Assembly: GCA_030622435.1 (NCBI GenBank)
Contig: JAUXGE010000003.1
Span: forward strand, 1 to 35,324
Source: Planctomycetota bacterium
GTDB lineage: Bacteria; Planctomycetota; Phycisphaerae; UBA1845
Direction of reading: 5' to 3'
DNA: 35,324 nt
Positions 61-25,877 of this stretch are shown here, in pieces (position 1 is the first letter of the stretch; every line of letters starts with the position of its first letter). The position numbers and the translations under genes were made by a program. A model generated the notes under the pieces. The model was not told the DNA's origin. It made no database searches and saw only the letters and a program-made list of their open reading frames with translations.

Positions 61-1620
61 CTACGGCTGACCTTCGAAGGTCACCTGGAACTGGGCTACG
101 TCGGCGAGATCCACGTCGCCGTCGTACTCGAAGTCGAAAACCTCGCAGCCTTCGAGATAAGGCCCGCTATTAGGTCCGGTCATGCAGGCTTCCCAGGTGG
201 CGAAGTCGTCCAGGTCTACATCCTCGTCGCACTGGTAGTCGCCGATGCCGAACTCGTACGCGCCCATGTCCACAGTGTCGCACAGAACGCGAACGTGGCC
301 GTCGAGGTCGGTTTCCGGCAGATTGGGGACGGCGTTCGAGCCGGTGTTGATGCAGGGTGAGCCGGGAAGCACATGCAAATCGTCGTCCTCGGTGCCGGGG
401 ACATCATCCTGCCCGTCGGCATCGGCGTAGAGAGGGTTGTGTTCGGGCAGCCCGCCAATGTTGCCCGCGCCGGACCAGCCGTCCTGGATACAACTATAAG
501 TGATGGTGGGCGAAGAGCCGGACTCGCTGAAGATTTGCGGTCCACTAAGCGCCGTGTTGCCCCACATGATGCAGTTGGTGATGACTGGATCACTGGTTTC
601 CGAGGGCGAGCCGGCGGCGTTGTACATCGCACCGCCGTCGTCAACAGCCGTGTTCCCGCTGAATGTGCAGTTCGTGACCGTCGGGCTGGCGGCGCCGTTG
701 AAGATCCCGCCGCCGGAAAGGGCGGAGTTTCCGCTGAAGACGCAGTTGACCATCGTGGGGTTACAGTCAACCCAGTTAAACACTCCGCCACCTAAGTCGG
801 CCTCATTCCCGATGAATCTGCAGTTCGTGACTATTGGGGCGCTGTCGGAGGCGTTCACCATCCCGCCGCCCAGGCTGTCCGTGCCGCTTGCCAGGTTTGC
901 GTGGAACGTGCAGTTTTCCAGCGTTGGGCTGCTGGCGGCGTTGTACACTGCGCCGCCCTGGGCGATTCGGGAATCCACTGAGTTCGCCGAGTTCCGGCTG
1001 AATGTGCAGTTGACCACGGAAGGATCACTGAACAGGTTCGCAATCCCTCCACCGCCAATACCCCAGTTGCCTCTGAAAGTGCAGTTTCGCACCGTCGGGC
1101 TGGACGCGTAGTTGAACATTCCACCGCCGGCGACGTGCAAGTCCACTCCGTCGGCCTTCCCTCCGGTAATCGTGAATCCGTCGAGAACGGCTGTGGCGTC
1201 AAGCAGGAGGTCCTCAGTATGGTAGAAGACATGAAAGCAGTTGTCGGAATCGTCGCCCTCTAGCCCGAGGTCGCCGCTGATGATCGTTTCGTACAGGAGC
1301 AGGTTCCGGTCGTTCGGGTTGGCAAGATTGGCCAGGCCGGCATACCCGCCCAAGAGTGTGACGCCATTGATGAGCTGGAAGGTTTCCGTGCGCGGAGTCT
1401 CGGGCTCGTACCGCTGGGACGGGTAGTAGGTTCCCGTGGCGACGCGAATCTCGTCGCCGCTCACTGCCACGGAAAGCGCATCCTGAATCGAGCAGAATGG
1501 GTCGCCGGCGCTGCCGGAGCCGGGTCCGGGGCAGTTGTCGACGTCGACGTACCACACGGCGGCCCGGACGGTCGTGGCAAGGACGACAAACGCCAAACAG
1601 ATTGTGGCGTAACGTATCAT
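61..1620 (-). CDS. Secreted right-handed parallel beta-helix (pectin-lyase-like) repeat protein with choice-of-anchor Q-like motif and C-terminal dockerin/EF-hand-like pair
   Basis: Signal peptide MIRYATICLAFVVLATTVRA-A; repeated NCTFxxNxAxxGGG(A/M)xN units; DLDGHVR...DMGAYE motif; C-terminal DxDVDLxD loop pair. ATG 1620 chosen for the upstream AAGAGGAAG; ORF is open to 1653. Confidence 0.8.
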   Translation of the reverse strand: MIRYATICLAFVVLATTVRAAVWYVDVDNCPGPGSGSAGDPFCSIQDALSVAVSGDEIRVATGTYYPSQRYEPETPRTETFQLINGVTLLGGYAGLANLANPNDRNLLLYETIISGDLGLEGDDSDNCFHVFYHTEDLLLDATAVLDGFTITGGKADGVDLHVAGGGMFNYASSPTVRNCTFRGNWGIGGGGIANLFSDPSVVNCTFSRNSANSVDSRIAQGGAVYNAASSPTLENCTFHANLASGTDSLGGGMVNASDSAPIVTNCRFIGNEADLGGGVFNWVDCNPTMVNCVFSGNSALSGGGIFNGAASPTVTNCTFSGNTAVDDGGAMYNAAGSPSETSDPVITNCIMWGNTALSGPQIFSESGSSPTITYSCIQDGWSGAGNIGGLPEHNPLYADADGQDDVPGTEDDDLHVLPGSPCINTGSNAVPNLPETDLDGHVRVLCDTVDMGAYEFGIGDYQCDEDVDLDDFATWEACMTGPNSGPYLEGCEVFDFEYDGDVDLADVAQFQVTFEGQP

Positions 1621-1874
1621 GGGCTTCTTCCTCTTATCCATCGTTTGTGTCACACGGCTCGGTAAGCCTCAGGCGTGCGAGCGCACACCCACACCGCGCC
1701 GCGTGAGCACACGGTATCAGCAACGGCACCCGCTGCGGTAGCTGCCTCCGCGCGCAGCGCCGTCGCGACCCTCCTTATGTGATTATACTGCCACGCTTCG
1801 CCTGATCGACGCAAATCCGAACTGCCGGACAGATACGTAGCCCGATAACCGCGCGTCACCCGGCCGTGGTGGCT

Positions 1875-1953
1875 GAAAAAGGGGCTGGCTCCGAGTTCAT
1901 GACCAATCAAGCCACCGATAAGCGTGCCCGGCGAGGTGCCTGTACCCTTTTTC
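1875..1953. repeat. Short REP-like inverted-repeat element
   Basis: GAAAAAGGGGCTGGCTCC (1875-1892) and GGTGCCTGTACCCTTTTTC (1935-1953) are imperfect inverted copies in an intergenic region. Confidence 0.6.
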
Positions 1954-2179
1954 CGTTCTTCGGCTCGCTCTCCGCCTGCGTAACGATCCGCCTTCTTCGC
2001 TGTGCTGTCGAGAGAGTCGCACGAAAGGGCGCCCGAAACTGCCGAAGGTAATCTGCGAATCCCGTACTGCCCTCCCCTGCCGACATGGTCTGTGGCTCTG
2101 TCTGCTCGGATCGCCCGTTGCCGGTGAATCGGTGAATCCCACCGGGTATGGCAGGGCTCGTGCGAAGAGGCGGATCGGA

Positions 2180-3328
2180 TTACTCCGGCTTCTTCCGAGT
2201 GGATCGGAGAAGCGCGTCGTACGTTTGTTCGATCTGGTCGAGCTGTACGAGCAGGGCGTCGTCGCGGCCGGTGTAGGCTCGCTTCGACCGGGCGAGTCCG
2301 ATGAACCACTTCACGGTGTTTTTGAAGTCGCTGAGATCGATGTATTCCGGGCCGAGCGTCTTGCGGCGCTTATTGACGTTGTGGTAGTTGCCCAGTGCGA
2401 CGCACATGCCCGTCGCCTCGTAGCCCAGCAGGCAGTAGGCCGACGACTCACACATTCCGCCGTCCATCAACGTTCGCCGATAAACGAACTTCTTGTCCTT
2501 GGCGGCCATGTCCTGAGCCACTCGATGACAGTGGGCTGTCACTGCCGGCGTGAACGTACTTGCGCGATCGCCCACGCGCAGGATCGGCCCGTCACCCATT
2601 TTCACGTGGGGAAGCTCCGTGCTCGTCTCCATGGCGACGACGTAGCACTTCGACGGAATGGTCTTGGCGCGCGCAGCGGCTATGGCGCCTGCGAAGCCGA
2701 CTTCTTCGGCGCGTGTAAACAGGAAGTAAGCGTCGCAGCTCGCCCGGCCGCGGTCCAGTTCTTCAATGGCGCACAGCATGGCCGCCGCGCCGGCGAGGTC
2801 GTCGCATGGGCGTGCGTAGATCCGCGAGCCGCGAACCTTCGGGTCCGGCAGGTCCCACATCCCGATCGAGCCCGGGGGTACGTCCTTTGGAACATCGATA
2901 ACGGCCGTCTCGACCCGTTCCCGTCCGGCCTTCTTCTTGGTTGTCACCGAGCAAACACGCCCGCGAACCCACTCACCATCCACGTAAAAGCGAACCTTGC
3001 TTCCGACGAAGTACTCCTTCGGCACGCCGCCCCACCAGTTAGCACGGAGGCTTCGCTTTGCGATCATCCGGTCGGCCACGAAGCCGGGGTGATCGAGATG
3101 GGCCGTGATGCACGCAGGGCGCTTCACTCGACGGCTGCCCTTGCGCACGCGCGCCAGCAGGTTCCCGACGCCGTCTAGACGCAGCGTCACATTCCTGCGC
3201 TGCGCGCAGAAGCCCTTGACGTAGTCAATGACGTAATGCTCGGCGAACGGCGCCGTAGGAAGCGAGAGCAGTTCGCGCAGGATCCGGCGGTGGGTGCGAC
3301 GTTGGATGCTCGGAGCCATGTTGCTCAT
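2180..3328 (-). CDS. M20/M28/M42-clan (MH clan) Zn-dependent metallopeptidase/hydrolase
   Basis: GNLLA, AHLDH, CDD, AEEVG, ME and YHN metal-ligand motifs in the expected order. Alternative start at 3319. Confidence 0.8.
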   Translation of the reverse strand: MSNMAPSIQRRTHRRILRELLSLPTAPFAEHYVIDYVKGFCAQRRNVTLRLDGVGNLLARVRKGSRRVKRPACITAHLDHPGFVADRMIAKRSLRANWWGGVPKEYFVGSKVRFYVDGEWVRGRVCSVTTKKKAGRERVETAVIDVPKDVPPGSIGMWDLPDPKVRGSRIYARPCDDLAGAAAMLCAIEELDRGRASCDAYFLFTRAEEVGFAGAIAAARAKTIPSKCYVVAMETSTELPHVKMGDGPILRVGDRASTFTPAVTAHCHRVAQDMAAKDKKFVYRRTLMDGGMCESSAYCLLGYEATGMCVALGNYHNVNKRRKTLGPEYIDLSDFKNTVKWFIGLARSKRAYTGRDDALLVQLDQIEQTYDALLRSTRKKPE

Positions 3329-3386
3329 CCTTACAGTTCAGTTCCTGGTTAACGACGCAGTAGCATAGCACAGACCAAACGAGGTG

Positions 3387-3418
3387 AAAAAGGGGGCGGG
3401 TCGATGCCGACCCGCCCC
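3387..3418 (-). terminator. Intrinsic terminator of the 3443-5728 gene
   Basis: 11-bp stem GGGGCGGGTCG/CGACCCGCCCC followed on the minus strand by CTTTTT. Confidence 0.7.
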
Positions 3419-3442
3419 AAGCTCGTCGTATCACTTTTTGAA

Positions 3443-5728
3443 CTACGGGCACACCGGCGGAGGACTCGGCGGCGGGAAGCCGGGACCGGGATACGTATCA
3501 CCCAGGAACGCACCGAGACAGTACGTCACGTCGGTGATGTTAATCGCCTGGTCGGGGATCCTGTGGTCACCGGCCGGTGAACCTTCGATGTCGGCGCGGA
3601 CCTTCTGCACGTTGCCCGGCAGGTTCTTCCACTTGTCCAGAATCGCTGTAACGTCCACGATGCCCGTGCTGCCGTCCGGCGGCGGGCACGGTGTCGTGTG
3701 GCAGTCCTGGACCAGGTCGGCCCAAGCGTTCTGCGTCAGCGTCAGCGCCGCCGAGTAGTTGGCCTCGATGTCCGGCGAGCATATTTCGTCGATCACTTGC
3801 ACGTCATACACACCAAGCGGGATGACGCCTTCGTCCCAAACGTGGACGATGTCGTACGTTGTCCAGTCGGTATAGTATGGATCGCATCCCAGGTCCGCCC
3901 CCCAGAACCACGCAGGGCTGATTCCGCCGGCAGACGCGCAGCCGTAGTCGGGCGGGAGATCGGGCGAAGGCGCCTCCTTCTGCATGGCGTTCTCGCAGTA
4001 ACGCCGGGGTTCCTGGACCCAGAGCCGAACGCCGGTCCAGTGCACATACGGCGCAGGCACGTTCTGGAACGTCACGCGGATCGCCTGTGGGCCGGTGTCA
4101 CCAGCGCTAAACGACAGATAGCGGACCTTCTGGCTGATCGGCGTATCAAGCAGCGGCAGCATCTCCGGCGCCGGGGCCGTCGACGGGGAGCAGACGCCGC
4201 AGGTGATCTCCAGGGTACCCTTACCCCACGACCAATACATAGCAAACAACGGGACGTATTCTCTGCCGGCGACGCGGATCAGGAAGCACTTGCCCTCTTG
4301 CTCTGCAAACAACTTAACGGTCGGGGTTCGCATCGGGCAAGGATCATCGGTGCAGGCGATCAGGTACGGCTCTAGCGACCCGCCTTGCGACGCACATTCG
4401 GACGGAAGCGGACAAACGGTCGTTCCGTTCGTGTAGATCGCCAGGACTGGAGCGAAGCTCGTATCGCAGATGTCGATGTCGATCCGCTTTTCGTCGCCGC
4501 ATGCATGGTACTCGAACCACTGGTCCGCAATAACAACCACGCTCCTCGGCGAGTCACCGCACGTCGGGTACCAGCACGGTTCATCCGCGCCCGAGCACAG
4601 GTTGTTAACATCGTGCTCGCCCTCGCCGATCACCTTCGGATTGATGCAATCTTCGCCCGGGATAGCGCTCGGCTCACCTGGGCAATCATCGCTGGCTGAC
4701 CCGAGGTCCTCACACGTAATGTCGGAGCACGAGGTCATGGGCGTGAACCACCCAGGAGGTGGCCAACCGCCCCACCACATAGCGTCGCCTGTGTCCCAGC
4801 AGCCCAAGCAGTCCTCCCACGGGACGCCGTCCTCACAGACCCCATCGCACGCGCAACACGCACCGGTCATCGGTGCGGGCACGCCCAAACCGCCGTCGAT
4901 GCAGAACGCCCAGTCGACCGGATTCATGTAGTGCTTGTACTGGACCAGGTCCTGGACGGTCCAGTCGAGTGTAGCGAAGTGATCGCTCCGAAACAGCGAC
5001 CAGCCGTTGCCCTCAAGGCTAAAGTGCACAAAGACACGGCACCCCGTACCGTCCGACGCAACTGGTAAACCGGCCGTCGAGAACTCGACCCAGTACCGAT
5101 CGCCGACAGCCAACCCGGTAATCGGCGGGTCGAAGAAGATCGCGTAGTCCCAGCAGTAAGAGTCGGGGCCTTGCCATTGCTTCGCGGCGATCTCGACGGG
5201 ACCCGGCGAGTTCGGCAGCTCCGCGCCCGGAAGCCCGTTGTTGTCCTCGTAGAACCGGATCTCCATCTGGATGTCCTCGGGCGGAGGTACTGTACCGTCA
5301 GGATCGGCGCAGCTGTCGAGGACCGGTCCGGGGCCGCTTAAGAAGCACGGCGAGAAGCAGAACTGCCCGATCTGCCCACTCTGCGCGATGAAGTCATCCG
5401 CGACCGCGTAGAAGCCGTAGTGCCGGTCTAACAACCACAATAATCTGTTCATCTCCGCCTGGCAGTTGTCGGGGTTGGACGCGGCCGGGCAAACCGTAGA
5501 TGGAACAGCCTCGAACGGGTCCGAGTCGCACGTGTCACCGAAATCGTTGCCGTCCCAGCACATGTAGTCGGACAGGCAGCACGCAAGCGCGGTTGACCGG
5601 CCGACGACGCCCGATTCACTTGAGCTGCCGTCCACCCAACCTGTTACGAGGTCTCGTGGGCTGTCCGCAGCCGACGCACCGGAGACACTGAGTAGCAGGG
5701 TAATCCAACCGACAGTAAGTCTGGACAT
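3443..5728 (-). CDS. Secreted Cys-rich multidomain protein with conserved ~240-aa C-terminal domain ending in a dockerin-like module
   Basis: Signal peptide from ATG 5728 (AAAGGAG upstream); VADDF-type domain, GACC Cys repeat, DQWFEY...IACTDD...LIRVAG domain; C-terminus paralogous to 6099-7064. Confidence 0.8.
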   Translation of the reverse strand: MSRLTVGWITLLLSVSGASAADSPRDLVTGWVDGSSSESGVVGRSTALACCLSDYMCWDGNDFGDTCDSDPFEAVPSTVCPAASNPDNCQAEMNRLLWLLDRHYGFYAVADDFIAQSGQIGQFCFSPCFLSGPGPVLDSCADPDGTVPPPEDIQMEIRFYEDNNGLPGAELPNSPGPVEIAAKQWQGPDSYCWDYAIFFDPPITGLAVGDRYWVEFSTAGLPVASDGTGCRVFVHFSLEGNGWSLFRSDHFATLDWTVQDLVQYKHYMNPVDWAFCIDGGLGVPAPMTGACCACDGVCEDGVPWEDCLGCWDTGDAMWWGGWPPPGWFTPMTSCSDITCEDLGSASDDCPGEPSAIPGEDCINPKVIGEGEHDVNNLCSGADEPCWYPTCGDSPRSVVVIADQWFEYHACGDEKRIDIDICDTSFAPVLAIYTNGTTVCPLPSECASQGGSLEPYLIACTDDPCPMRTPTVKLFAEQEGKCFLIRVAGREYVPLFAMYWSWGKGTLEITCGVCSPSTAPAPEMLPLLDTPISQKVRYLSFSAGDTGPQAIRVTFQNVPAPYVHWTGVRLWVQEPRRYCENAMQKEAPSPDLPPDYGCASAGGISPAWFWGADLGCDPYYTDWTTYDIVHVWDEGVIPLGVYDVQVIDEICSPDIEANYSAALTLTQNAWADLVQDCHTTPCPPPDGSTGIVDVTAILDKWKNLPGNVQKVRADIEGSPAGDHRIPDQAINITDVTYCLGAFLGDTYPGPGFPPPSPPPVCP

Positions 5729-5874
5729 GGTAAGACACTCCTTTCCGGAAAAGACCTGAACCGCGCCCTTAGACTCGTCGAGACACGCCGACTGCGGGCG
5801 GAAATGGCGGAACACAGCCGGGCGGACTCACCCGTGGGATAGGGCCACCTTTCCCTGCGTCCGGGAACGAGCGC

Positions 5875-5904
5875 ATTGTAGATCCCGAGCGAGCGCCTCG
5901 TCAA
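5875..5904 (-). promoter_or_regulatory. sigma70-type promoter for the 3443-5728 gene
   Basis: Minus strand TTGACG (5904-5899)-N18-TACAAT (5880-5875). Confidence 0.6.
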
Positions 5905-5914
5905 GGCAATACTT

Positions 5915-6011
5915 TAACAAAGCATTGAAGAAGGTGTGGCGTGGGCTTCCAGCTCACGTTTTCACCGGCTGGAAGCCGGTGCGAAAGAGAGCCTTTTCCA
6001 ACAGGCTGCTA
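5915..6011. mobile_element. MITE-like element with IS-type ends and internal REP-like doublet (same family as 26908-27011)
   Basis: Right end TTTTCCAACAGGCTGCTA, degenerate left end TAACAAAGCATTGAAGAA; core GTGGCGTGGGCTTCCAGC...CACCGGCTGGAAGCCGGTGC nearly identical to the core of the 26908-27011 copy. Confidence 0.7.
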
Positions 6012-6043
6012 AGCCTCGCGACTCAGGAGACCCTGGGAGCATC

Positions 6044-6081
6044 CGAGGTTGGGCGGGTCGATTTCGACCCGCCCAACCTCG
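6044..6081. repeat. Perfect 18-bp inverted repeat downstream of the 6099-7064 gene (no U-tract)
   Basis: CGAGGTTGGGCGGGTCGA-TT-TCGACCCGCCCAACCTCG; paralogous to the 3387-3418 terminator. Confidence 0.8.
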
Positions 6082-6098
6082 TCGCATTACTTGCCAGA

Positions 6099-7064
6099 CT
6101 ACGGGCACACCGGCGGATCGCTCGGTGCCGGGAAGCCGGGACCGGGATACGTATCGCCAAGGAACGCACCGAGACAGTACGTCACGTCGGTGATGTTGAT
6201 CTGCTGGTCCGGAAGCCGGTGGTCACCCCCCGGCGATCCTTCGATGTCCGCCCTCACCTTCTTCACGTTGCCAGGCAGGTTCTTGTACTTATCAAGCACC
6301 GCCGTCACGTCCACGATCCCCGTGTTGCCGTCCGGAGGCTTGCACGGAGTCGTCGTGCAGTCCTGGATGAGATCGGCCCAGACACTTTGCGTGAGCGTCA
6401 GCGCCGGCGAGTAGTTGCCCTCGATCGCAAGGGTGCACGTACCATCAATGACCTGAATGTCGTACTCGCCACCCGGCACGATGCCCTCGTGAAACACGTG
6501 GACCGAACCGGCCGATGCCCAATCGTACGCCTCGGGCGGCTCACAACCGAGCGTCGCGGCCAGGAAGTCCACTGATGCCAAACCCCCAACGGACGGTGGA
6601 CACGGATCCCCCTGTGCTACGCCACCGTTCTCGCAGTACACCTGCGGCGTCTGAACGAACATCTGCACGCCGTTCCACGTGTCGTACGGCGCCGGGAGAT
6701 CCACGAACGTCACCCTGACGAACCCGTTGCGCCCCACGTCCTGCGCTTCGAACGACAGGTACCGGATCTTCCGGCTGATCGGATCAAACGGCAGATCGAG
6801 CCGCTCCGGTTCGGCCGGTGACGACACGTAGCACGCTAGACCGAACGACCAGAAGCCCTCGGTCACGGTATAGTCTTCGCCTGCCATCGCGCCTGCGTCG
6901 GGCTGGCCGATGGTGCCGCCGGCCTCGTACGCGCCCCCGCTCGCGTTCATCACACCGCCGCCGTCGACGGTGTGCCACGTGACTTCGTATGTTTGTGCGG
7001 CCGCAGGCACACTGAGCGCCACTGCAGCCAGGGCCAAAATGACCATCGAAGTGCTGTTTCTCAT
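6099..7064 (-). CDS. Secreted protein: small N-terminal WxTVDGGG...GTIGQPDAG...GFW domain fused to the same C-terminal dockerin-like-ending domain as 3443-5728
   Basis: Signal peptide from ATG 7064 (AAGAGG upstream) ending AAA-Q; the last ~110 codons align without gaps to the paralog. Confidence 0.8.
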   Translation of the reverse strand: MRNSTSMVILALAAVALSVPAAAQTYEVTWHTVDGGGVMNASGGAYEAGGTIGQPDAGAMAGEDYTVTEGFWSFGLACYVSSPAEPERLDLPFDPISRKIRYLSFEAQDVGRNGFVRVTFVDLPAPYDTWNGVQMFVQTPQVYCENGGVAQGDPCPPSVGGLASVDFLAATLGCEPPEAYDWASAGSVHVFHEGIVPGGEYDIQVIDGTCTLAIEGNYSPALTLTQSVWADLIQDCTTTPCKPPDGNTGIVDVTAVLDKYKNLPGNVKKVRADIEGSPGGDHRLPDQQINITDVTYCLGAFLGDTYPGPGFPAPSDPPVCP

Positions 7065-7158
7065 AAGAAACCTCTTTTCCGCGAATAACTGATTCGCGAA
7101 CAATCTTGTGTCTGTCGGCTTCATGATTCAACTCCTGTCACACATGCCTCACGAAGCC

Positions 7159-9186
7159 TCAAGGTGCACACGCCCCGGTACCATCGCAGTAATCGTTCGG
7201 CCACACGCACTCGCCGTCTGGATCCTGCCCCGCCGGGATGTAAGAGCAAGTGCCCTCACTTCCAGCGAGGTCGCACCGCATGCAAAGTGCGCCGCAGCCC
7301 GAACTGCAACACACGTAGTCAACGCAGAAGCCGCTCATGCACTCGGCGGGGCCGCCGCACGACCAACCCGGACAACCCTCGTCAGTGTCACCGTCGCAGT
7401 CGTCGTCGAACCCGTTGCAGATCTCGATGTCGTTGCCCGACGTGTCGCTACAGATCAATGAACCACCCCCGCAGTAGTAAGTGCCCTCCGGGCAGAAGTC
7501 GGTGTCCGGCCCGTCACAGAGAGTGCCCACTACTGGATCCTCGTCCCCGTCGGCGGATGCAGGATCGCAGTCGTTGTCGACGCCGTCACATACATCGAGG
7601 TCGTCCCCTGTCATGTCGTTGCAGACCAAGGTTCCCCCCTGGCACGAGAAAGTCCCTTCCGCGCAGAGATCACTGTCCATTCCGTCACAGAGAGTGCCCA
7701 CCTGCGGGTCCTCGGAACCATCGGGCGAGGCGGGATCACAGTCGTTGTCTACGCCGTCACATACATCGAGATCGTCACCCGTCATGTCGCTGCACCACAC
7801 AGATCCGCCTTGGCACGAGGAAACACCTTCATGACAGAGATCACTGTCCATTCCGTCACAGGAAATGCCCACCTGCGGGTCCTCGTCCCCGTCGGCCGAG
7901 GCGGGGTCACAGTCGTTGTCCATGCCGTCGCAGAGGTCAACGGTACTGCCGGTGTTGTCACTACACGACAGATATCCACCTTGGCACAAGAAAGTCCCTT
8001 CTACACAGAAATCGCTGTCGGGTCCGTCACAGGGAACACCCGTTTGCGGGTCCTCGGACCCGTCGGGCGAGGAAGGATCACAGTCGTTGTCGACACCGTC
8101 ACAAACATCGAGGTCGTCACCTGTCATGTCGCTGCAGACCAAGGCCATCGATTGGCACACAAAAGTCCCTTCTACACAGAGATCGCTGTCCGGTCCGTCA
8201 CATGGCACGCCCGTTTGCGGGTCCTCGGAACCATCGGCCGAGGAAGGATCGCAGTCATTGTCGACACCGTCACAAACATCGAGATCACTGCCCGTCGCGT
8301 CACTGCATGTTTGCGCGCCTCCTTCGCAGGAGGCCGTGCCCTCCGGACAGAGATCACTGTCCGGTCCGTCACAGGGAGCGCCGTACCAGGCTTCATCGAA
8401 ACCGTCCGCCGTGCCGTCATCGCAGTCGTTGTCCACCCAGTCGCAGGCCTCGAACGCGGTCGGATAGACCAATTCGTTGTCATCCTGGCAGTCCGCCGGG
8501 TGTCCGTCCGTGTCGTACGGATTGCTCGCATCGCAATTGTCGTAGCCGTCCCCGTCCTGATCGGCGCAGTCACACTCATCGCCTGCGCCGTCGTGATCCG
8601 TGTCGATCTGCCAGGGGTTGAACTCGCTCGGGCAGTTGTCGCATGCATCGCCCTTTGCGTCGTTGTCACCGTCCTCCTGGCCGGCATTGGCAGTGAATGG
8701 ACAGTTGTCCCCCGCGTTCGGGACTCCGTCGCCGTCGAGATCGGCAAGCCCGGCCGGGGATACAGAGGCCGCGTGAAGCGAATAGGGGGCGGGTGTGATC
8801 TCTTGACGCGGGCTCAGGACGACAAAATCCACGTCGGCTGTGCACATGACGGCCATCTCGAGCCAGCGGGCGTCGCCTTGGAACGCGCCCACGTCGAAGT
8901 CGAGCAGCACGGTGAATCGGCCTTCGCTCACATCGACGGGCTCGGGGTTCTCGCCCGTGCCGTCGAAGACAATCGCGTCGCCGATCTGGCTTCCCGGATC
9001 GACGCTCGCAGGATCGTCCCAGAGGCTAAAGGCCATCACGCACACGTCCGTGACCGGACTGTCGGCCTGTTTGAGCTCCCCCTGGTACGTAAACGCCGTG
9101 CCCATCGCGTATGGCTGCCCTTGCGCAGTCAATGCAGGGGCCAACAAGACCACCGCGCCAATCCACCATTTGTTTCTACCATTCAT
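7159..9186 (-). CDS. Secreted Cys/Asp-rich repeat protein (N-terminal TAFTYQG domain, thrombospondin type-3-like repeats, MopE-like CDGxDNDCD repeats)
   Basis: Signal peptide; DxDGDGVxxxGDNCP and GDACDNCP TSP3-like motifs; six 57-aa repeats; ATGA overlap with the upstream gene. Confidence 0.85.
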   Translation of the reverse strand: MNGRNKWWIGAVVLLAPALTAQGQPYAMGTAFTYQGELKQADSPVTDVCVMAFSLWDDPASVDPGSQIGDAIVFDGTGENPEPVDVSEGRFTVLLDFDVGAFQGDARWLEMAVMCTADVDFVVLSPRQEITPAPYSLHAASVSPAGLADLDGDGVPNAGDNCPFTANAGQEDGDNDAKGDACDNCPSEFNPWQIDTDHDGAGDECDCADQDGDGYDNCDASNPYDTDGHPADCQDDNELVYPTAFEACDWVDNDCDDGTADGFDEAWYGAPCDGPDSDLCPEGTASCEGGAQTCSDATGSDLDVCDGVDNDCDPSSADGSEDPQTGVPCDGPDSDLCVEGTFVCQSMALVCSDMTGDDLDVCDGVDNDCDPSSPDGSEDPQTGVPCDGPDSDFCVEGTFLCQGGYLSCSDNTGSTVDLCDGMDNDCDPASADGDEDPQVGISCDGMDSDLCHEGVSSCQGGSVWCSDMTGDDLDVCDGVDNDCDPASPDGSEDPQVGTLCDGMDSDLCAEGTFSCQGGTLVCNDMTGDDLDVCDGVDNDCDPASADGDEDPVVGTLCDGPDTDFCPEGTYYCGGGSLICSDTSGNDIEICNGFDDDCDGDTDEGCPGWSCGGPAECMSGFCVDYVCCSSGCGALCMRCDLAGSEGTCSYIPAGQDPDGECVWPNDYCDGTGACAP
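7370..8376 (-). repeat. Intragenic tandem repeat, 171-bp (57-aa) unit, ~6 copies
   Basis: CCGTCACA anchors recur at 7511, 7682, 7853, 8024, 8195 and 8366 (171-bp period). Confidence 0.9.
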
Positions 9187-11804
9187 CGCTCACCTCCTAT
9201 TGATTCCTCGGTCAATTTGTTGACGATTGTCTCCAGAGCGGCCAGGCGTACATCGAGCCGCTCGTTCTGTTTCTTCAATCTGTCGACCTCTGCATCCTTC
9301 TCTTTCACGATGTCATACAACCCCTGTATGGCTGCCAGGGCGACGCCGTCGGCGTCCTGCATATTGATGGCCGCGTCGCTTTCGCCGAATCCGAACTCGG
9401 CGAAGTCCTGCGCCACCGGCCCGATGTGGCGAATGGATGGGTCCTGGCTCTTCAGGTTGTACGTTTGAATGGGCAGCTCTGCCACTTGCTCAAGGGCTGC
9501 CCGTTGGTCTACCGGCTCGAAGTTCTCCTTCGTGTTCCGGTCGCTGACGCCGTTCCACGAGTTGCCCCCGGCGGAAACATAGACGCCGCTGGTCAGACCG
9601 GAACTCGTGTAGAAGTAAACGCCGCCGCTGGCCCGTGCAACCCAACGATTGTTGTTGTTGCACTCGACATCGGCAGTTGAGGAATCACCCCAGACGAAGC
9701 AGCCGGCATTGTTGGCTTTGGCCCTGTACCCGGCGGCGAGACTATACGACCCCTGGGCGCTGTTTTCCCTCCCTCCAGGAACGGTGGCGTGCCCGCCACC
9801 CGCGTTGTTCCCTTCACCGCCGGCGACCGTGGCCCACGAGCTGCTAGCCGTGTTGTTGTAGCCGCCGCCTACGAAGCTGTACCAGTTGCTTGCGTCGCAA
9901 TGCCGTCCACCGACTACGGCGGAATAGGTTCCGGTCGCGTTGCAGTCGCTGCCGCCGGCAACTGTAGCATGGCCTTCGCCCGCGCCGCTGGCAGTGTTGC
10001 CGTGTCCACCTGCAACCGTGGAATAGGCAGTGCTCGCAAGGTTGTTGTTTCCACCACCGACCGTCCCATAGTTGGCTGCAACGCGGTTGGCGGCACCGGA
10101 GGCTCCGCCACCACTGACGGTACCCCCGTAAACGCCGGCGGATACGTAGTTGTCGGCGTATCCGGCAACGAAGTTCGGGCTCGTGGCATCAGTTTCAATG
10201 CGTAGCCCACGGCCGCCGTTGACGTGAAGTTCCAGGTCGCCGCTGGAGCTTATCACGTTTGTCGTACCGTTGATGGTGATCGAGCTGCCGCTCGTGATGG
10301 TTCCGCTCGCGTGAATGTTCCCATCGACGTCCAGGCGCTCGCCGGGACTTACCGTTCCGATGCCCACATCGCCGTCGCTCTTGATCGTCAGTCGAGGCAA
10401 CGATGAGCTGGATCCGGCCGGCGTTGTGTTCAGCACAAGCCGACCGGGCATGTCGCTCGTTCCGGGCGTGCCATCCGCGAAGGCCGTAATTGACGCGGAA
10501 TTACGGTAGGCACTGCCGTCATACCCCCGAAAGCGAATTGCGCCTGTCCGGTCGTCCTCCACCAGGGAGGCCGGTGTTCCAATAGATCCGCGGCTGTTCT
10601 CAAAGTCGAAGCTCCAGGATCCACCGTCTGAGTACGAACGGTGTTTGGGGTCGAAGTTGACCATGTGAAAGCTGTTTCTTACGTCGAGTAGCGCGCCGGG
10701 GCTGTTGGTGCCGATCCCGACGCCGCCCGAAGCCCGAATGAGGAACTGGTCGTTGCCGGTGGAGGTGAAGTCGGCATCGGTCGAATCGGCCCAGACGAAC
10801 GTTCCCTGATGGTTCACGATGGCGCGGCGTCCAGCCGCTAGGCTGAAGTCACCTTCTGCGCGGTTGTACGTTCCTCCGGGGATCGCGCTGTACTCGCCGC
10901 TTGCCGTATTGCGATACCCGCCGGCCACGGTCGCGTACGTCGTTTCGGTCCGATTGGACCGGCCTCCACCAACGACGCTGGCCTCTCCATCGGCCACGTT
11001 GCTCTCTCCGCCACCGACCGTAGACCACGGCCGGTTTGCGATGCTCGCGCGCCCGCCTCCAACAGTGGCGTACGTCGCGAGTGCCGTGTTGTAGGCGCCT
11101 CCTGAGATTGTCGCAAACATCGCATCTGACGGGTCGCCGTCTATTGTACCGGCCCGGTTGAACGCGCCGCCGGCCACTGTGCCATGGTCGTCGGTAACGG
11201 CGTTTAACTGTCCTCCGCCGATGGTTGCGTGGGCGCCGCCGGCCTCATTGTATTCGCCGCCGCCGATAACACCGAAGTCACCAGTGATGGTTTGCGCAGC
11301 CCCAGTGGACCCGCCTCCGCCGATCGTTGCACCCGCCACGCCTGCAGCGACATCGTTGCTGGGAGAGCCGCCGATGATGTTCGGGCTGGAAGGATCCTGC
11401 TCAGTGCGCAGCCCAGGCAAAGCCAGCGCATGTGGCGCCGGCGTCAGCTCTGTGCGCGGACTGAGTGTCTCCAGTGTGCATCCGCCGGAAGGGCAGCAGA
11501 CGGCCATCTCCAGCCAGCGGGCCTGGCCGTTGAACTGCTCGCCGAAGTCCAACTCCATGGTAAAGAGACCTTCGTTGACGACCACGGCGGCAAGAGACAA
11601 CGTCGTGGAAAGCTGGTTCCCATCCGACGGTTCGTCATAGAGGCCGAAAGCGAACTCGCATGAACCCGTGACTGGGCTACCTTCGCTAGCAAGGTGCCCC
11701 TGATACGTGAAGGCCGTGCCCATCGGAGCCGGTGCGCCGGTCGCACCGGCGAACGGGATCAGGAAACCCGAAATGACCACGACGACAAGAATTGGCTTTC
11801 TCAT
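9183..11804 (-). CDS. Secreted trimeric tail-fibre-like adhesin with C-terminal peptidase S74 intramolecular chaperone
   Basis: Signal peptide from ATG 11804 (GGGAG upstream); TAFTYQG N-domain; Gly-rich xTVxGGxxNxAxG repeats; VGIGTxSP shaft motifs; SDRNTKEN...HIGPVAQDF...LAAIQGL S74 signature plus terminal coiled coil. Confidence 0.85.
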   Translation of the reverse strand: MRKPILVVVVISGFLIPFAGATGAPAPMGTAFTYQGHLASEGSPVTGSCEFAFGLYDEPSDGNQLSTTLSLAAVVVNEGLFTMELDFGEQFNGQARWLEMAVCCPSGGCTLETLSPRTELTPAPHALALPGLRTEQDPSSPNIIGGSPSNDVAAGVAGATIGGGGSTGAAQTITGDFGVIGGGEYNEAGGAHATIGGGQLNAVTDDHGTVAGGAFNRAGTIDGDPSDAMFATISGGAYNTALATYATVGGGRASIANRPWSTVGGGESNVADGEASVVGGGRSNRTETTYATVAGGYRNTASGEYSAIPGGTYNRAEGDFSLAAGRRAIVNHQGTFVWADSTDADFTSTGNDQFLIRASGGVGIGTNSPGALLDVRNSFHMVNFDPKHRSYSDGGSWSFDFENSRGSIGTPASLVEDDRTGAIRFRGYDGSAYRNSASITAFADGTPGTSDMPGRLVLNTTPAGSSSSLPRLTIKSDGDVGIGTVSPGERLDVDGNIHASGTITSGSSITINGTTNVISSSGDLELHVNGGRGLRIETDATSPNFVAGYADNYVSAGVYGGTVSGGGASGAANRVAANYGTVGGGNNNLASTAYSTVAGGHGNTASGAGEGHATVAGGSDCNATGTYSAVVGGRHCDASNWYSFVGGGYNNTASSSWATVAGGEGNNAGGGHATVPGGRENSAQGSYSLAAGYRAKANNAGCFVWGDSSTADVECNNNNRWVARASGGVYFYTSSGLTSGVYVSAGGNSWNGVSDRNTKENFEPVDQRAALEQVAELPIQTYNLKSQDPSIRHIGPVAQDFAEFGFGESDAAINMQDADGVALAAIQGLYDIVKEKDAEVDRLKKQNERLDVRLAALETIVNKLTEESIGGER

Positions 11805-12107
11805 AGCTTCGCTCCCTGTAAAACATGAAAGGGCCGATAGGGGACAAGAGGGACGCATTCATCAAACGACATTGCTAGAAGCATCCTCCCTCCGGTCAAC
11901 CGCTGTGCAGGTGGGGCACCGCTCTGCCGAGGCCGCGGCTTCCCCCTGCCAGACTACGCTCCCGGTCGCTCCTCCTGCCCACTCGGTGGCGGACGCCACG
12001 ACCATTGCCTTAGATGCGCAACCGGGCCCAGTGAGAAGAGGCTGTAGAAGACGATGAGACGAGCCGGCCCGAAGGCCGGCACGAGCCCGATAAGCTCACC
12101 AGAAGCG

Positions 12108-25259: not shown

Positions 25260-25877
25260 TCAAACGGCAACCTGATGACGCGCCCGAAGGAGCGCCATCG
25301 CACCAAAGCCCACAAGCAAGATGGTCCCTGGCTCGGGAATTGGTGCGAACACAAAGTCGTTGCAGACGGCAAAGGTTGTGCCGCGGTCCAACGTGACCGA
25401 CGCGATCGGTACTTCGGACACAACGCCAAGGAATAGCACCCCTTGGCCCCCATAGTCCTCGCTTCCGAGCAACGTTCCCGCGGAGTCGTAGATGGACACC
25501 ATCGTATAGGCGGGGTAAAACGTCCCGACGGCGAACGCTGGGACGGTCAGCTCGCCGACAATCCAGTTTCGCACCGACAAGGGATAGGCGTCTGCCCCCA
25601 GCGCGTACCCTGACACATCGTTACCCTCGAGGAACAAGTGCGGGACTGGGGTGGAGAAGGTCACACCCTCGTCGGTGTAGTTGAAATCCGGCGTGATCTC
25701 CGCGCGGGGGAAACTCGACGTCCCGTCGGGCAGTGTGTCAAAGTCGATCGTCTGAACGACCCGCGCGGCTGCCACAAAACCTTCGTAGTCGTCATAGAAC
25801 CAAATCGGCCCGCCCTTGGTCGGCAGTGCCGCCGCCAGAATCGCCGTGGTGCTGAAAATGATGCCGATCGCGCGCAT
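25260..25877 (-). CDS. PEP-CTERM sorting-domain surface protein (paralog 2)
   Basis: Signal peptide; IDFDTLPDGT and ITPDFNYTxxGVTFS motifs shared with paralog 1; IPEPGT + TM + basic tail. Confidence 0.9.
   Translation of the reverse strand: MRAIGIIFSTTAILAAALPTKGGPIWFYDDYEGFVAAARVVQTIDFDTLPDGTSSFPRAEITPDFNYTDEGVTFSTPVPHLFLEGNDVSGYALGADAYPLSVRNWIVGELTVPAFAVGTFYPAYTMVSIYDSAGTLLGSEDYGGQGVLFLGVVSEVPIASVTLDRGTTFAVCNDFVFAPIPEPGTILLVGFGAMALLRARHQVAV

Follow-up and report, generated by a model that had tools for sequence, protein, structure and literature searches.

Variable secreted proteins with a common N-terminal domain are encoded beside small, anchor-tailed domain proteins in Phycisphaerae and Anaerolineae

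How might secreted proteins of entirely different build, one of them resembling a phage tail fibre, be held at a bacterial surface by a common means? The question is raised by a cluster of four genes in a Planctomycetota bacterium (class Phycisphaerae, UBA1845; assembly GCA_030622435.1), which lies on contig JAUXGE010000003.1; all 35,324 nt of this contig were analysed, and are referred to here as the window (contig C24). The host genome amounts to 4.2 Mb and is 76% complete, and its closest database relatives carry the labels Phycisphaerae or Planctomycetota. The four open reading frames (ORFs), numbered P0001 to P0004 in the order of transcription, are all on the minus strand and span positions 3443-11858; their signal peptides were called from the N-termini by eye, not by a dedicated predictor. 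The original prediction, made from the nucleotide sequence of the window, described four co-oriented genes linked in pairs by shared domains, named X, Y and Z, and the ORF positions and the alignments of X and Z agree with this description. Two of these domains, X at the N-termini of P0001 and P0002 and Y in P0003, mark a two-gene module that is real, widespread and uncharacterised: genes encoding X and Y are neighbours in two phyla, through the complete turnover of the rest of both proteins.

Within the host genome, X was found at seven places and Y at four. Three of the four Y genes abut X genes, and the remaining one lies at the start of a contig, preceded by a fragment that aligns with three X proteins at their C-termini (expect (E) values of 4e-29 to 1e-25). 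The association was also evident in a sample of 201 genomes from the class of the host, 29 of which had Y and 31 X; all 29 of the genomes with Y also had X, and the tallies of the two domains were near-identical family by family (8/9, 7/9 and 7/7 in the three families of the host's order). X was located within 10 kb of 62 of the 74 Y matches in this sample, as against 1.8 expected by chance, with every one of the 62 nearby pairs on the same strand and X upstream in 55 of them. Across the phylum Y is diluted, being present in four of the 301 genomes of a phylum-wide Planctomycetota sample.

A further sample, composed of 79 loci from GTDB species genomes with 86 Y ORFs, had X within 10 kb of 68 of these ORFs, all 68 on the same strand. 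The most common gene order was XY (30 loci), followed by Y alone (18), YX (10), XXY (8), XYXY (4) and XXXY (2), with seven other arrangements. In 40 of 54 X-to-Y neighbours, no more than 330 nt separate the X stop codon from the start of the Y domain, and as this spacing includes a signal peptide of around 25-30 codons, the X and Y genes themselves must often abut. The pattern was repeated in Chloroflexi, in a sample of 201 genomes from the class of an Anaerolineae genome: Y was detected in 100 and X in 119, both being found together in 95, Y only in five, X only in 24 and neither in 77. For at least 106 of the 150 listed Y matches, a listed X lay no more than 10 kb away, always on the same strand and upstream in 94 cases; as 150 of the 337 X matches were listed, this proportion is a lower bound. 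Hence the neighbourhood co-occurrence of X and Y expected from the original prediction is borne out in both phyla.

The two X-bearing proteins of the cluster have around 105 residues after their signal peptides in common, and nothing else. Over this region 57 of 125 residues are identical (46%; E 3e-24), and the rest of the two proteins is unalike, just as had been noticed at the outset. P0001 is 891 aa long from the first ATG and 873 aa in the database form, which starts from an internal Met (9183-11804); 11804 is the probable start. The body of this protein matches phage tail fibre PHROGs, and its identification as an S74 fibre is sound, as the C-terminal Peptidase_S74 match (PF13884) scores 43.9 bits, exceeding the gathering cut-off of 22, and starts at S-D-R-N-T-K, an instance of the S-D-x-x-x-K catalytic motif quoted for S74 in the available part of an earlier study (PMC10769870). 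The fibre is probably self-cleaving and trimeric. The start of P0002 (675 aa) and the stop of P0001 overlap by 4 nt, in agreement with the predicted coupling of a Cys/Asp repeat protein to the fibre gene; the repeats, of the MopE type, derive from a tandem array of 171 bp period (4.6 copies, 78% matches, positions 7503-8283) encoding 57 aa Cys/Asp units. Bodies of the P0002 type also occur without X elsewhere in the genome, on contigs C205, C95 and C242.

The bodies behind X vary widely. A signal-like hydrophobic stretch precedes X in 76 of 83 ORFs, and X begins within a few residues of the cleavage site, opening with an alternating strand that is conserved, F-T-Y-Q-G-Q-L; the Gln in Y-Q-G and the Arg in P-R-Q are invariant. 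By our own count, PF13884 is present on 69 of the 120 best X-bearing database proteins. Among the 77 X proteins adjoining Y, S74 is found in 15 and no Pfam family at all in 54, with one each having Kelch, RCC1, collagen and MopE plus TSP3 domains, and a few giving adhesin-repeat or beta-roll matches; X is the only feature that they have in common, their bodies and C-termini being unrelated, which agrees with its predicted occurrence on interchangeable bodies. In the host genome, S74 is absent from every X protein that directly adjoins Y, hence the association is of Y with X, and not with the S74 chaperone. X proteins do not appear to carry anchors of their own: anchor regular expressions match two of 83 X ORFs, as against 53 of 86 Y ORFs, and no X ORF of the host genome is among those bearing Z or Dockerin_1. 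Several non-S74 X proteins were observed to share a C-terminal domain of around 150 aa with a coiled-coil-like end (L045 (G000:C118), positions 1-504; L085; L125), which may be another C-terminal assembly module.

X had no match in Pfam, NCBIfam or PHROGs. The sole match of its profile in the PDB was weak (E 0.037) and limited to the central strands, corresponding to a repeat of Clostridium perfringens Cpe0147 (4mkm_A / 4ni6_A), an adhesin repeat with an immunoglobulin (Ig)-like fold stabilised by a Thr-Gln ester bond; the Thr of F-T-Y-Q-G, considered in this comparison, is not conserved among X paralogues.

Domain Y was located at residues 50-92 of P0003 (341 aa, with a probable start at the Met at 7064), as WHTVDGGG...GTIGQPDAG...GFW, confirming the motif reported in the third gene. 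Its fold is probably a Gly-rich beta-hairpin. The other three Y genes of the host genome encode proteins of 139-150 aa, composed of a signal peptide, Y and a two-loop dockerin of around 60 aa; at E<=1e-3, 2968 relatives of such a Y-dockerin protein were found, none of them named, and a homologue matched only unnamed Planctomycetota protein clusters. Searching with the Y region within proteins of 187-597 aa gave six matches, with few words shared. In Pfam, NCBIfam and PHROGs, Y matched no family at or over its curated cut-off, and PDB sequences gave no match. A reading of Y as a shortened form of X was discarded, as hhalign shows the two to be unrelated. No description of an X-Y pairing was found in the searched literature on the Y motif, on the YLP-box, or following up the mosaic adhesive trimer (MAT) fibres of Bdellovibrio.

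What follows Y differs between lineages. The 86 Y ORFs of the GTDB loci have tails of 44-77 aa in 64 cases, 15-24 aa in seven and longer in 15. Pfam Dockerin_1 (PF00404) matches 44 of 57 mid-length tails at E<=0.01, and the longer proteins combine Y either with other domains and a dockerin, or with Z. The short tails are those of Chloroflexi, and end in a motif of the type Y-L-P-L-V-L-R, labelled by NCBIfam as the YLP-box putative sorting motif (NF050076 / NF053834). Of 20 Y proteins from the Anaerolineae-class sample, 14 match the YLP-box regular expression and the other six are near variants by eye; with the NCBIfam models, 12 of the 20 match at E<=0.1 and six reach the curated cut-off. Judging from these sequences, Y is always N-terminal and is followed by a predicted anchoring or sorting element that varies by lineage, a dockerin in Phycisphaerae and a YLP-box in Chloroflexi, which upholds the anchoring type of tail originally suspected.

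Several features of individual Y genes were also recorded. The Chloroflexi proteins with an ultrashort YLP-box end are around 100 aa long (L129-L148, L065, L068, L075, L078, L083 and L092). At some Anaerolineae-class loci, a single stop-to-stop frame contains two Y domains, of which the second is preceded by a signal peptide of its own (L132, L136, L137, L139 and L145), and these may be tandem Y genes or read-through. In a Phycisphaera metagenome-assembled genome, a Y frame (L107, 5549-6580) runs upstream into fibre-like sequence that overlaps an X-protein ORF in another frame; the explanation is a natural fusion of cargo and Y, or else a frameshift introduced in assembly.

A relation between Y and pilus subunits is hinted at by seven Y proteins that weakly match the N-terminal part of NCBIfam PamT (NF058579; E 1.8e-4 to 0.1), one of them matching without its signal peptide. 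PamT is a predicted donor-strand acceptor, according to the available part of the report on the Pam pilus of the candidate phyla radiation (CPR) (PMC13278184). Y might then be an incomplete Ig-like fold that accommodates the strand at the N-terminus of X, in the manner of tip or base subunits of chaperone-usher or CPR Pam pili, and the resulting joint would be very stable; the location of the F-T-Y-Q-G-Q-L strand close to the signal peptide cleavage site would suit such a role. However, the PamT scores do not exceed 21 bits, against a cut-off of 240, and chaperone or usher genes do not recur in the neighbourhoods; strand complementation is therefore considered highly unlikely.

The composition of these proteins also bears on whether Y acts at the opposite end of the cargo. 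In phage fibre/assembly-protein pairs, a fibre gene is followed at tight spacing by a small gene, an order that the X-Y pairs resemble, and the fibre bodies match phage tail fibre PHROGs. Y could hence be an accessory that assists the folding of the cargo's distal portion, or caps or decorates it, like phage tail fibre assembly or tip proteins, without binding X. Against this, X is the one thing shared by the proteins adjoining Y, the anchor-type tails of Y suit a position proximal to the cell, and Y has neither a PHROG match nor a relative in 2.9 million viral contigs, as assessed by a pattern scan. Such a distal function appears distinctly unlikely.

The third domain, Z, is of a different nature from X and Y. 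As predicted, it is common to P0003 and to P0004 (790 aa), at the C-terminal end of which it lies, with 151 of 265 residues identical (57%; E 4e-90); no paralogue of the N-terminal portion of P0004 occurs in the host genome. Yet the whole host genome contains 57 Z matches, and a phmmer search of all its ORFs found Z in 48, ranging from 80 to 2500 aa in length, in 46 of which the match stops within nine residues of the ORF end, a few of these being cut by contig ends. P0003 has 5560 relatives at E<=1e-3 in a library of 1.84 billion representatives. In most of these relatives, Z forms the C-terminus of a protein that is otherwise unrelated; proteins of around 300-340 aa with the Y plus Z layout are also among them. 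Z was detected in only three of the 201 class genomes (the host, a congener and one more genus), with 60-74 first-look candidates in each. Hence Z is a C-terminal module, restricted to this lineage and massively expanded within it, putatively for anchoring or sorting.

This distribution removes two parts of the original prediction. Z is not the dedicated tether of an X-Y system, being present on 48 ORFs of the host genome and in three of the class genomes, and the usual tail of Y is a dockerin of around 62 aa. As Z is such a module, the link between P0003 and P0004 is unspecific, and P0004, tied to P0003 only through this large paralogous family, is no part of a four-gene system. The dockerin-like pair of loops claimed for the end of Z amounts to a weak resemblance: this end faintly resembles NCBIfam dockerin_GC (NF041540; 19 bits, E 1e-3, with the cut-off at 29 bits) and the dockerin tails of Y proteins (hhalign E 1.3e-3, probability 18%), but no Pfam dockerin matches it in P0003 or P0004 at E<=0.1.

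A plausible role for Y is that of an anchoring adaptor. One to three copies of the first gene would encode secreted cargo with X as the mature N-terminus and a freely variable remainder, in the window the S74 tail-fibre-like protein and the Cys/Asp-repeat protein; the second gene, directly downstream and in many cases overlapping the stop codon, would encode a small secreted adaptor in which a signal peptide and Y precede a surface-anchoring tail characteristic of each lineage. Following Sec export, X would bind non-covalently to Y, and the tail of Y would fix the complex to the envelope, with one Y serving several X proteins. In Phycisphaerae the tail would be the Ca-dependent dockerin, presumably docking on cohesin-bearing scaffold proteins, and in Anaerolineae the C-terminal YLP-box sorting motif; in the window Z, an abundant C-terminal module of this lineage, would replace the short dockerin on the adaptor. 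That the conserved module works in this manner, with X bound by the Y adaptor and the cargo anchored to the envelope through the tail, is to our minds an evenly balanced proposition. Consistent with it, two PF00963 cohesin matches over the cut-off are present in the host genome, on contig C185 (L128), one of them on a Cohesin+HYR protein.

Several observations weigh against this proposal. The sampled genomes are related to one another, such that counts are not independent and those for X-Y overstate their statistical weight. X can occur with no Y nearby, or with none detected at all: in the class sample, 43 of 117 X matches lack a Y within 10 kb, and 24 of the 119 X-bearing Anaerolineae-class genomes showed none; conversely, 12 of 74 Y matches in the class sample and 18 of 86 in the GTDB loci have no X within 10 kb, some of these being at contig ends. 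No cohesin gene is adjacent to X-Y, and the dockerin resemblance of the end of Z is faint. Finally, linkage in an operon is also compatible with co-regulation or with a chaperone role.

One form of co-regulation deserves separate consideration: X and Y might never touch, being envelope proteins under common control or each binding a third surface component, with their linkage reflecting shared regulation, for instance by an extracytoplasmic function (ECF) sigma factor and a Ser/Thr kinase. Only two kinds of neighbour recur among 83 X-Y loci, and these are an ECF sigma factor (PF07638), at 11 loci, and a Ser/Thr kinase with tetratricopeptide repeats (TPR), at 20; no secretion, usher, chaperone or phage family recurs. 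The two genes are possibly a dedicated regulator of the X-Y operon, and the occurrence of X without Y, and of Y without X, would also be explained. Nevertheless, all nearby pairs in the three samples are on the same strand (62/62, 68/68 and 106/106), stop and start codons frequently abut, and the arrangement has been conserved in two phyla despite complete turnover of the cargo bodies and of the Y tails. Because of this strict same-strand adjacency, abutment and conservation, stoichiometric partners fit better than loose co-regulation, and we consider an absence of contact between X and Y unlikely. At one locus of the host genome, C168 (L043, G000:C168, 14315-15000 and beyond), the sigma factor and kinase genes were seen to be divergent from the X-Y operon; further examples of these recurrent neighbours lie at L103:6162-6806 and L104:4847-7702.

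The anchoring-adaptor proposal can be extended to a general plug and socket for surface display in at least two phyla, in which any secreted protein with an N-terminal X would be captured by Y, and the tail of Y would be exchanged according to the envelope, as a dockerin, Z or a YLP-box; strand complementation may make the joint. X-Y is present in about half of the sampled Anaerolineae-class genomes. This broader version is put forward tentatively, as a possible but doubtful generalisation.

The S74 domain and the PHROG tail fibre matches of P0001 raise the further question of whether the cluster is a prophage or a phage tail remnant. It is flanked by housekeeping genes, encoding an M42 peptidase, a CitMHS transporter, UvrA, an S41 protease, TIM and SecG, and the base composition of the window is even, with no break. 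X, Y and Z have no PHROG matches, and among viral contigs there is no locus for Y by the pattern scan and a single one for X (L127, an IMG/VR contig, 1088-6284), where an X-Kelch propeller protein is encoded beside an alanyl-tRNA synthetase gene; this contig looks cellular rather than viral. A prophage origin is thus barely credible and was rejected, in keeping with the non-phage nature initially attributed to the cluster.

The coordinates of the features are given in Table 1. Elsewhere in the window, a secreted beta-helix protein with a choice-of-anchor Q domain is encoded at 61-1653, a homologue of which is found downstream of a Y-Z gene in another locus (L049), and the gene for a small secreted PEP-CTERM protein lies at 25260-25877.

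Table 1. Positions of the cluster genes, their domains and candidate expression signals in the window
Feature	Position	Strand	Basis
Terminator-like hairpin (11 bp, 10 GC pairs) and T-run, 3' of P0004	3393..3418	-	Consensus match alone
P0004: signal peptide, unique Cys-rich N-terminal part (~515 aa), Z	3443..5815	-	ORF, alignment
Domain Z of P0004	3446..4174	-	Genome search
P0003: signal peptide, Y, Z (Y-Z fusion)	6099..7124	-	ORF, alignments
Domain Z of P0003 (~240 aa); last ~65 aa (6159-6350) weakly dockerin-like	6102..6824	-	Alignment
Domain Y (~50 aa); invariant G, T, G-Q, G..W positions	6843..6992	-	82-sequence alignment
P0002: signal peptide, X, Asp-rich TSP3-like stretch, 57 aa Cys/Asp (MopE-type) repeats	7159..9186	-	ORF, Pfam, repeat scan
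Domain X of P0002	8773..9111	-	Alignment
P0001: signal peptide, X, repeat body like that of phage tail fibres, C-terminal Peptidase_S74 chaperone	9183..11858	-	PF13884 E 2.9e-11; phrog_9942 E 5e-24
Peptidase_S74 region matched in P0001 (residues 772-821); S-D-x-x-x-K motif at its start	9396..9545	-	Pfam
Domain X of P0001 (~103 aa), directly after signal peptide	11421..11729	-	Alignment
Sigma-70-like promoter match (10/12), upstream of P0001	12108..12136	-	Number of matches in region not above shuffles

Host-encoded fibres of phage-like type are already known, and Y provides a specific candidate for the surface partner of their conserved N-terminal domain: it is a domain of around 50 aa, with no match at or over a curated family cut-off, that is genetically tied to X-bearing genes in two phyla. 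The pattern suggests an undescribed way to hang interchangeable fibres on the cell surface. Were the binding of X to Y true, it would explain the display of exchangeable adhesins by the mostly uncultured Phycisphaerae and Anaerolineae, and the two domains would constitute a compact natural tag and catcher pair.

The closest parallel is with the MAT fibres of Bdellovibrio. In the available part of their description (PMC10769870), all 21 possess a beta-rich domain that is conserved, is around 130 aa long and comes immediately after the signal peptide, have C-termini that do or do not carry S74, and are presumed by the authors to bind an unidentified cell-surface element through this N-terminal domain; the portion of a 2026 review (PMC13689555) that could be consulted adds nothing further on that partner, and the MAT structures in the PDB are of tips only. 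Like these fibres, X proteins are host-encoded and have a single conserved domain straight after the signal peptide, on S74 and non-S74 members alike, with variable bodies and tips. They differ in that X is around 105 aa long, in that many X cargos are not fibres (Kelch, RCC1 and MopE repeats), and in their occurrence in different phyla; nor is a Y-like neighbour of MAT genes reported in the accessible text of PMC10769870. Should X and the N-terminal domain of the MAT fibres be homologous, the surface receptor still missing for host-encoded S74 fibres would be a Y-like protein.

Resemblances to phage and pilus systems are more limited. P0001 shares with phage tail fibres its S74 chaperone and body, a conserved N-terminal module on exchangeable fibres and a small gene directly downstream; unlike phage fibres and their adaptors, the cluster contains no other phage genes, X and Y are missing from PHROGs and practically absent from viral contigs, and the tail of Y is of a cell-anchoring type. 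With donor-strand pili, both of the chaperone-usher kind and the CPR Pam pilus as presented in the available part of PMC13278184, X-Y has in common subunits exported by Sec and the weak similarity of Y to the N-terminal region of PamT; unlike in those systems, there are no chaperone or usher genes, and the PamT scores are far under the family cut-off.

The tails of the Phycisphaerae Y proteins invite comparison with the cellulosome and with the 'planctosome', described in the available part of its report (PMC6461901) as a hypothetical cohesin-dockerin scaffold of freshwater Phycisphaerae. As in these, secreted proteins end in a C-terminal Ca-loop dockerin, and the host genome encodes cohesin proteins, including Cohesin+HYR. 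Also in common with the planctosome, peptidase genes (C10, reprolysin-like, beta-lactamase-like and trypsin-like) lie downstream of two host-genome X-Y loci, at C168 (L043) 103-6443 and C227 (L044) 3083-4696. Unlike in cohesin-dockerin scaffolds, however, the dockerin is on an adaptor of around 140 aa and not on the cargo, such that an X-Y pairing would be interposed, and in Chloroflexi Y has the YLP-box motif in place of the dockerin.

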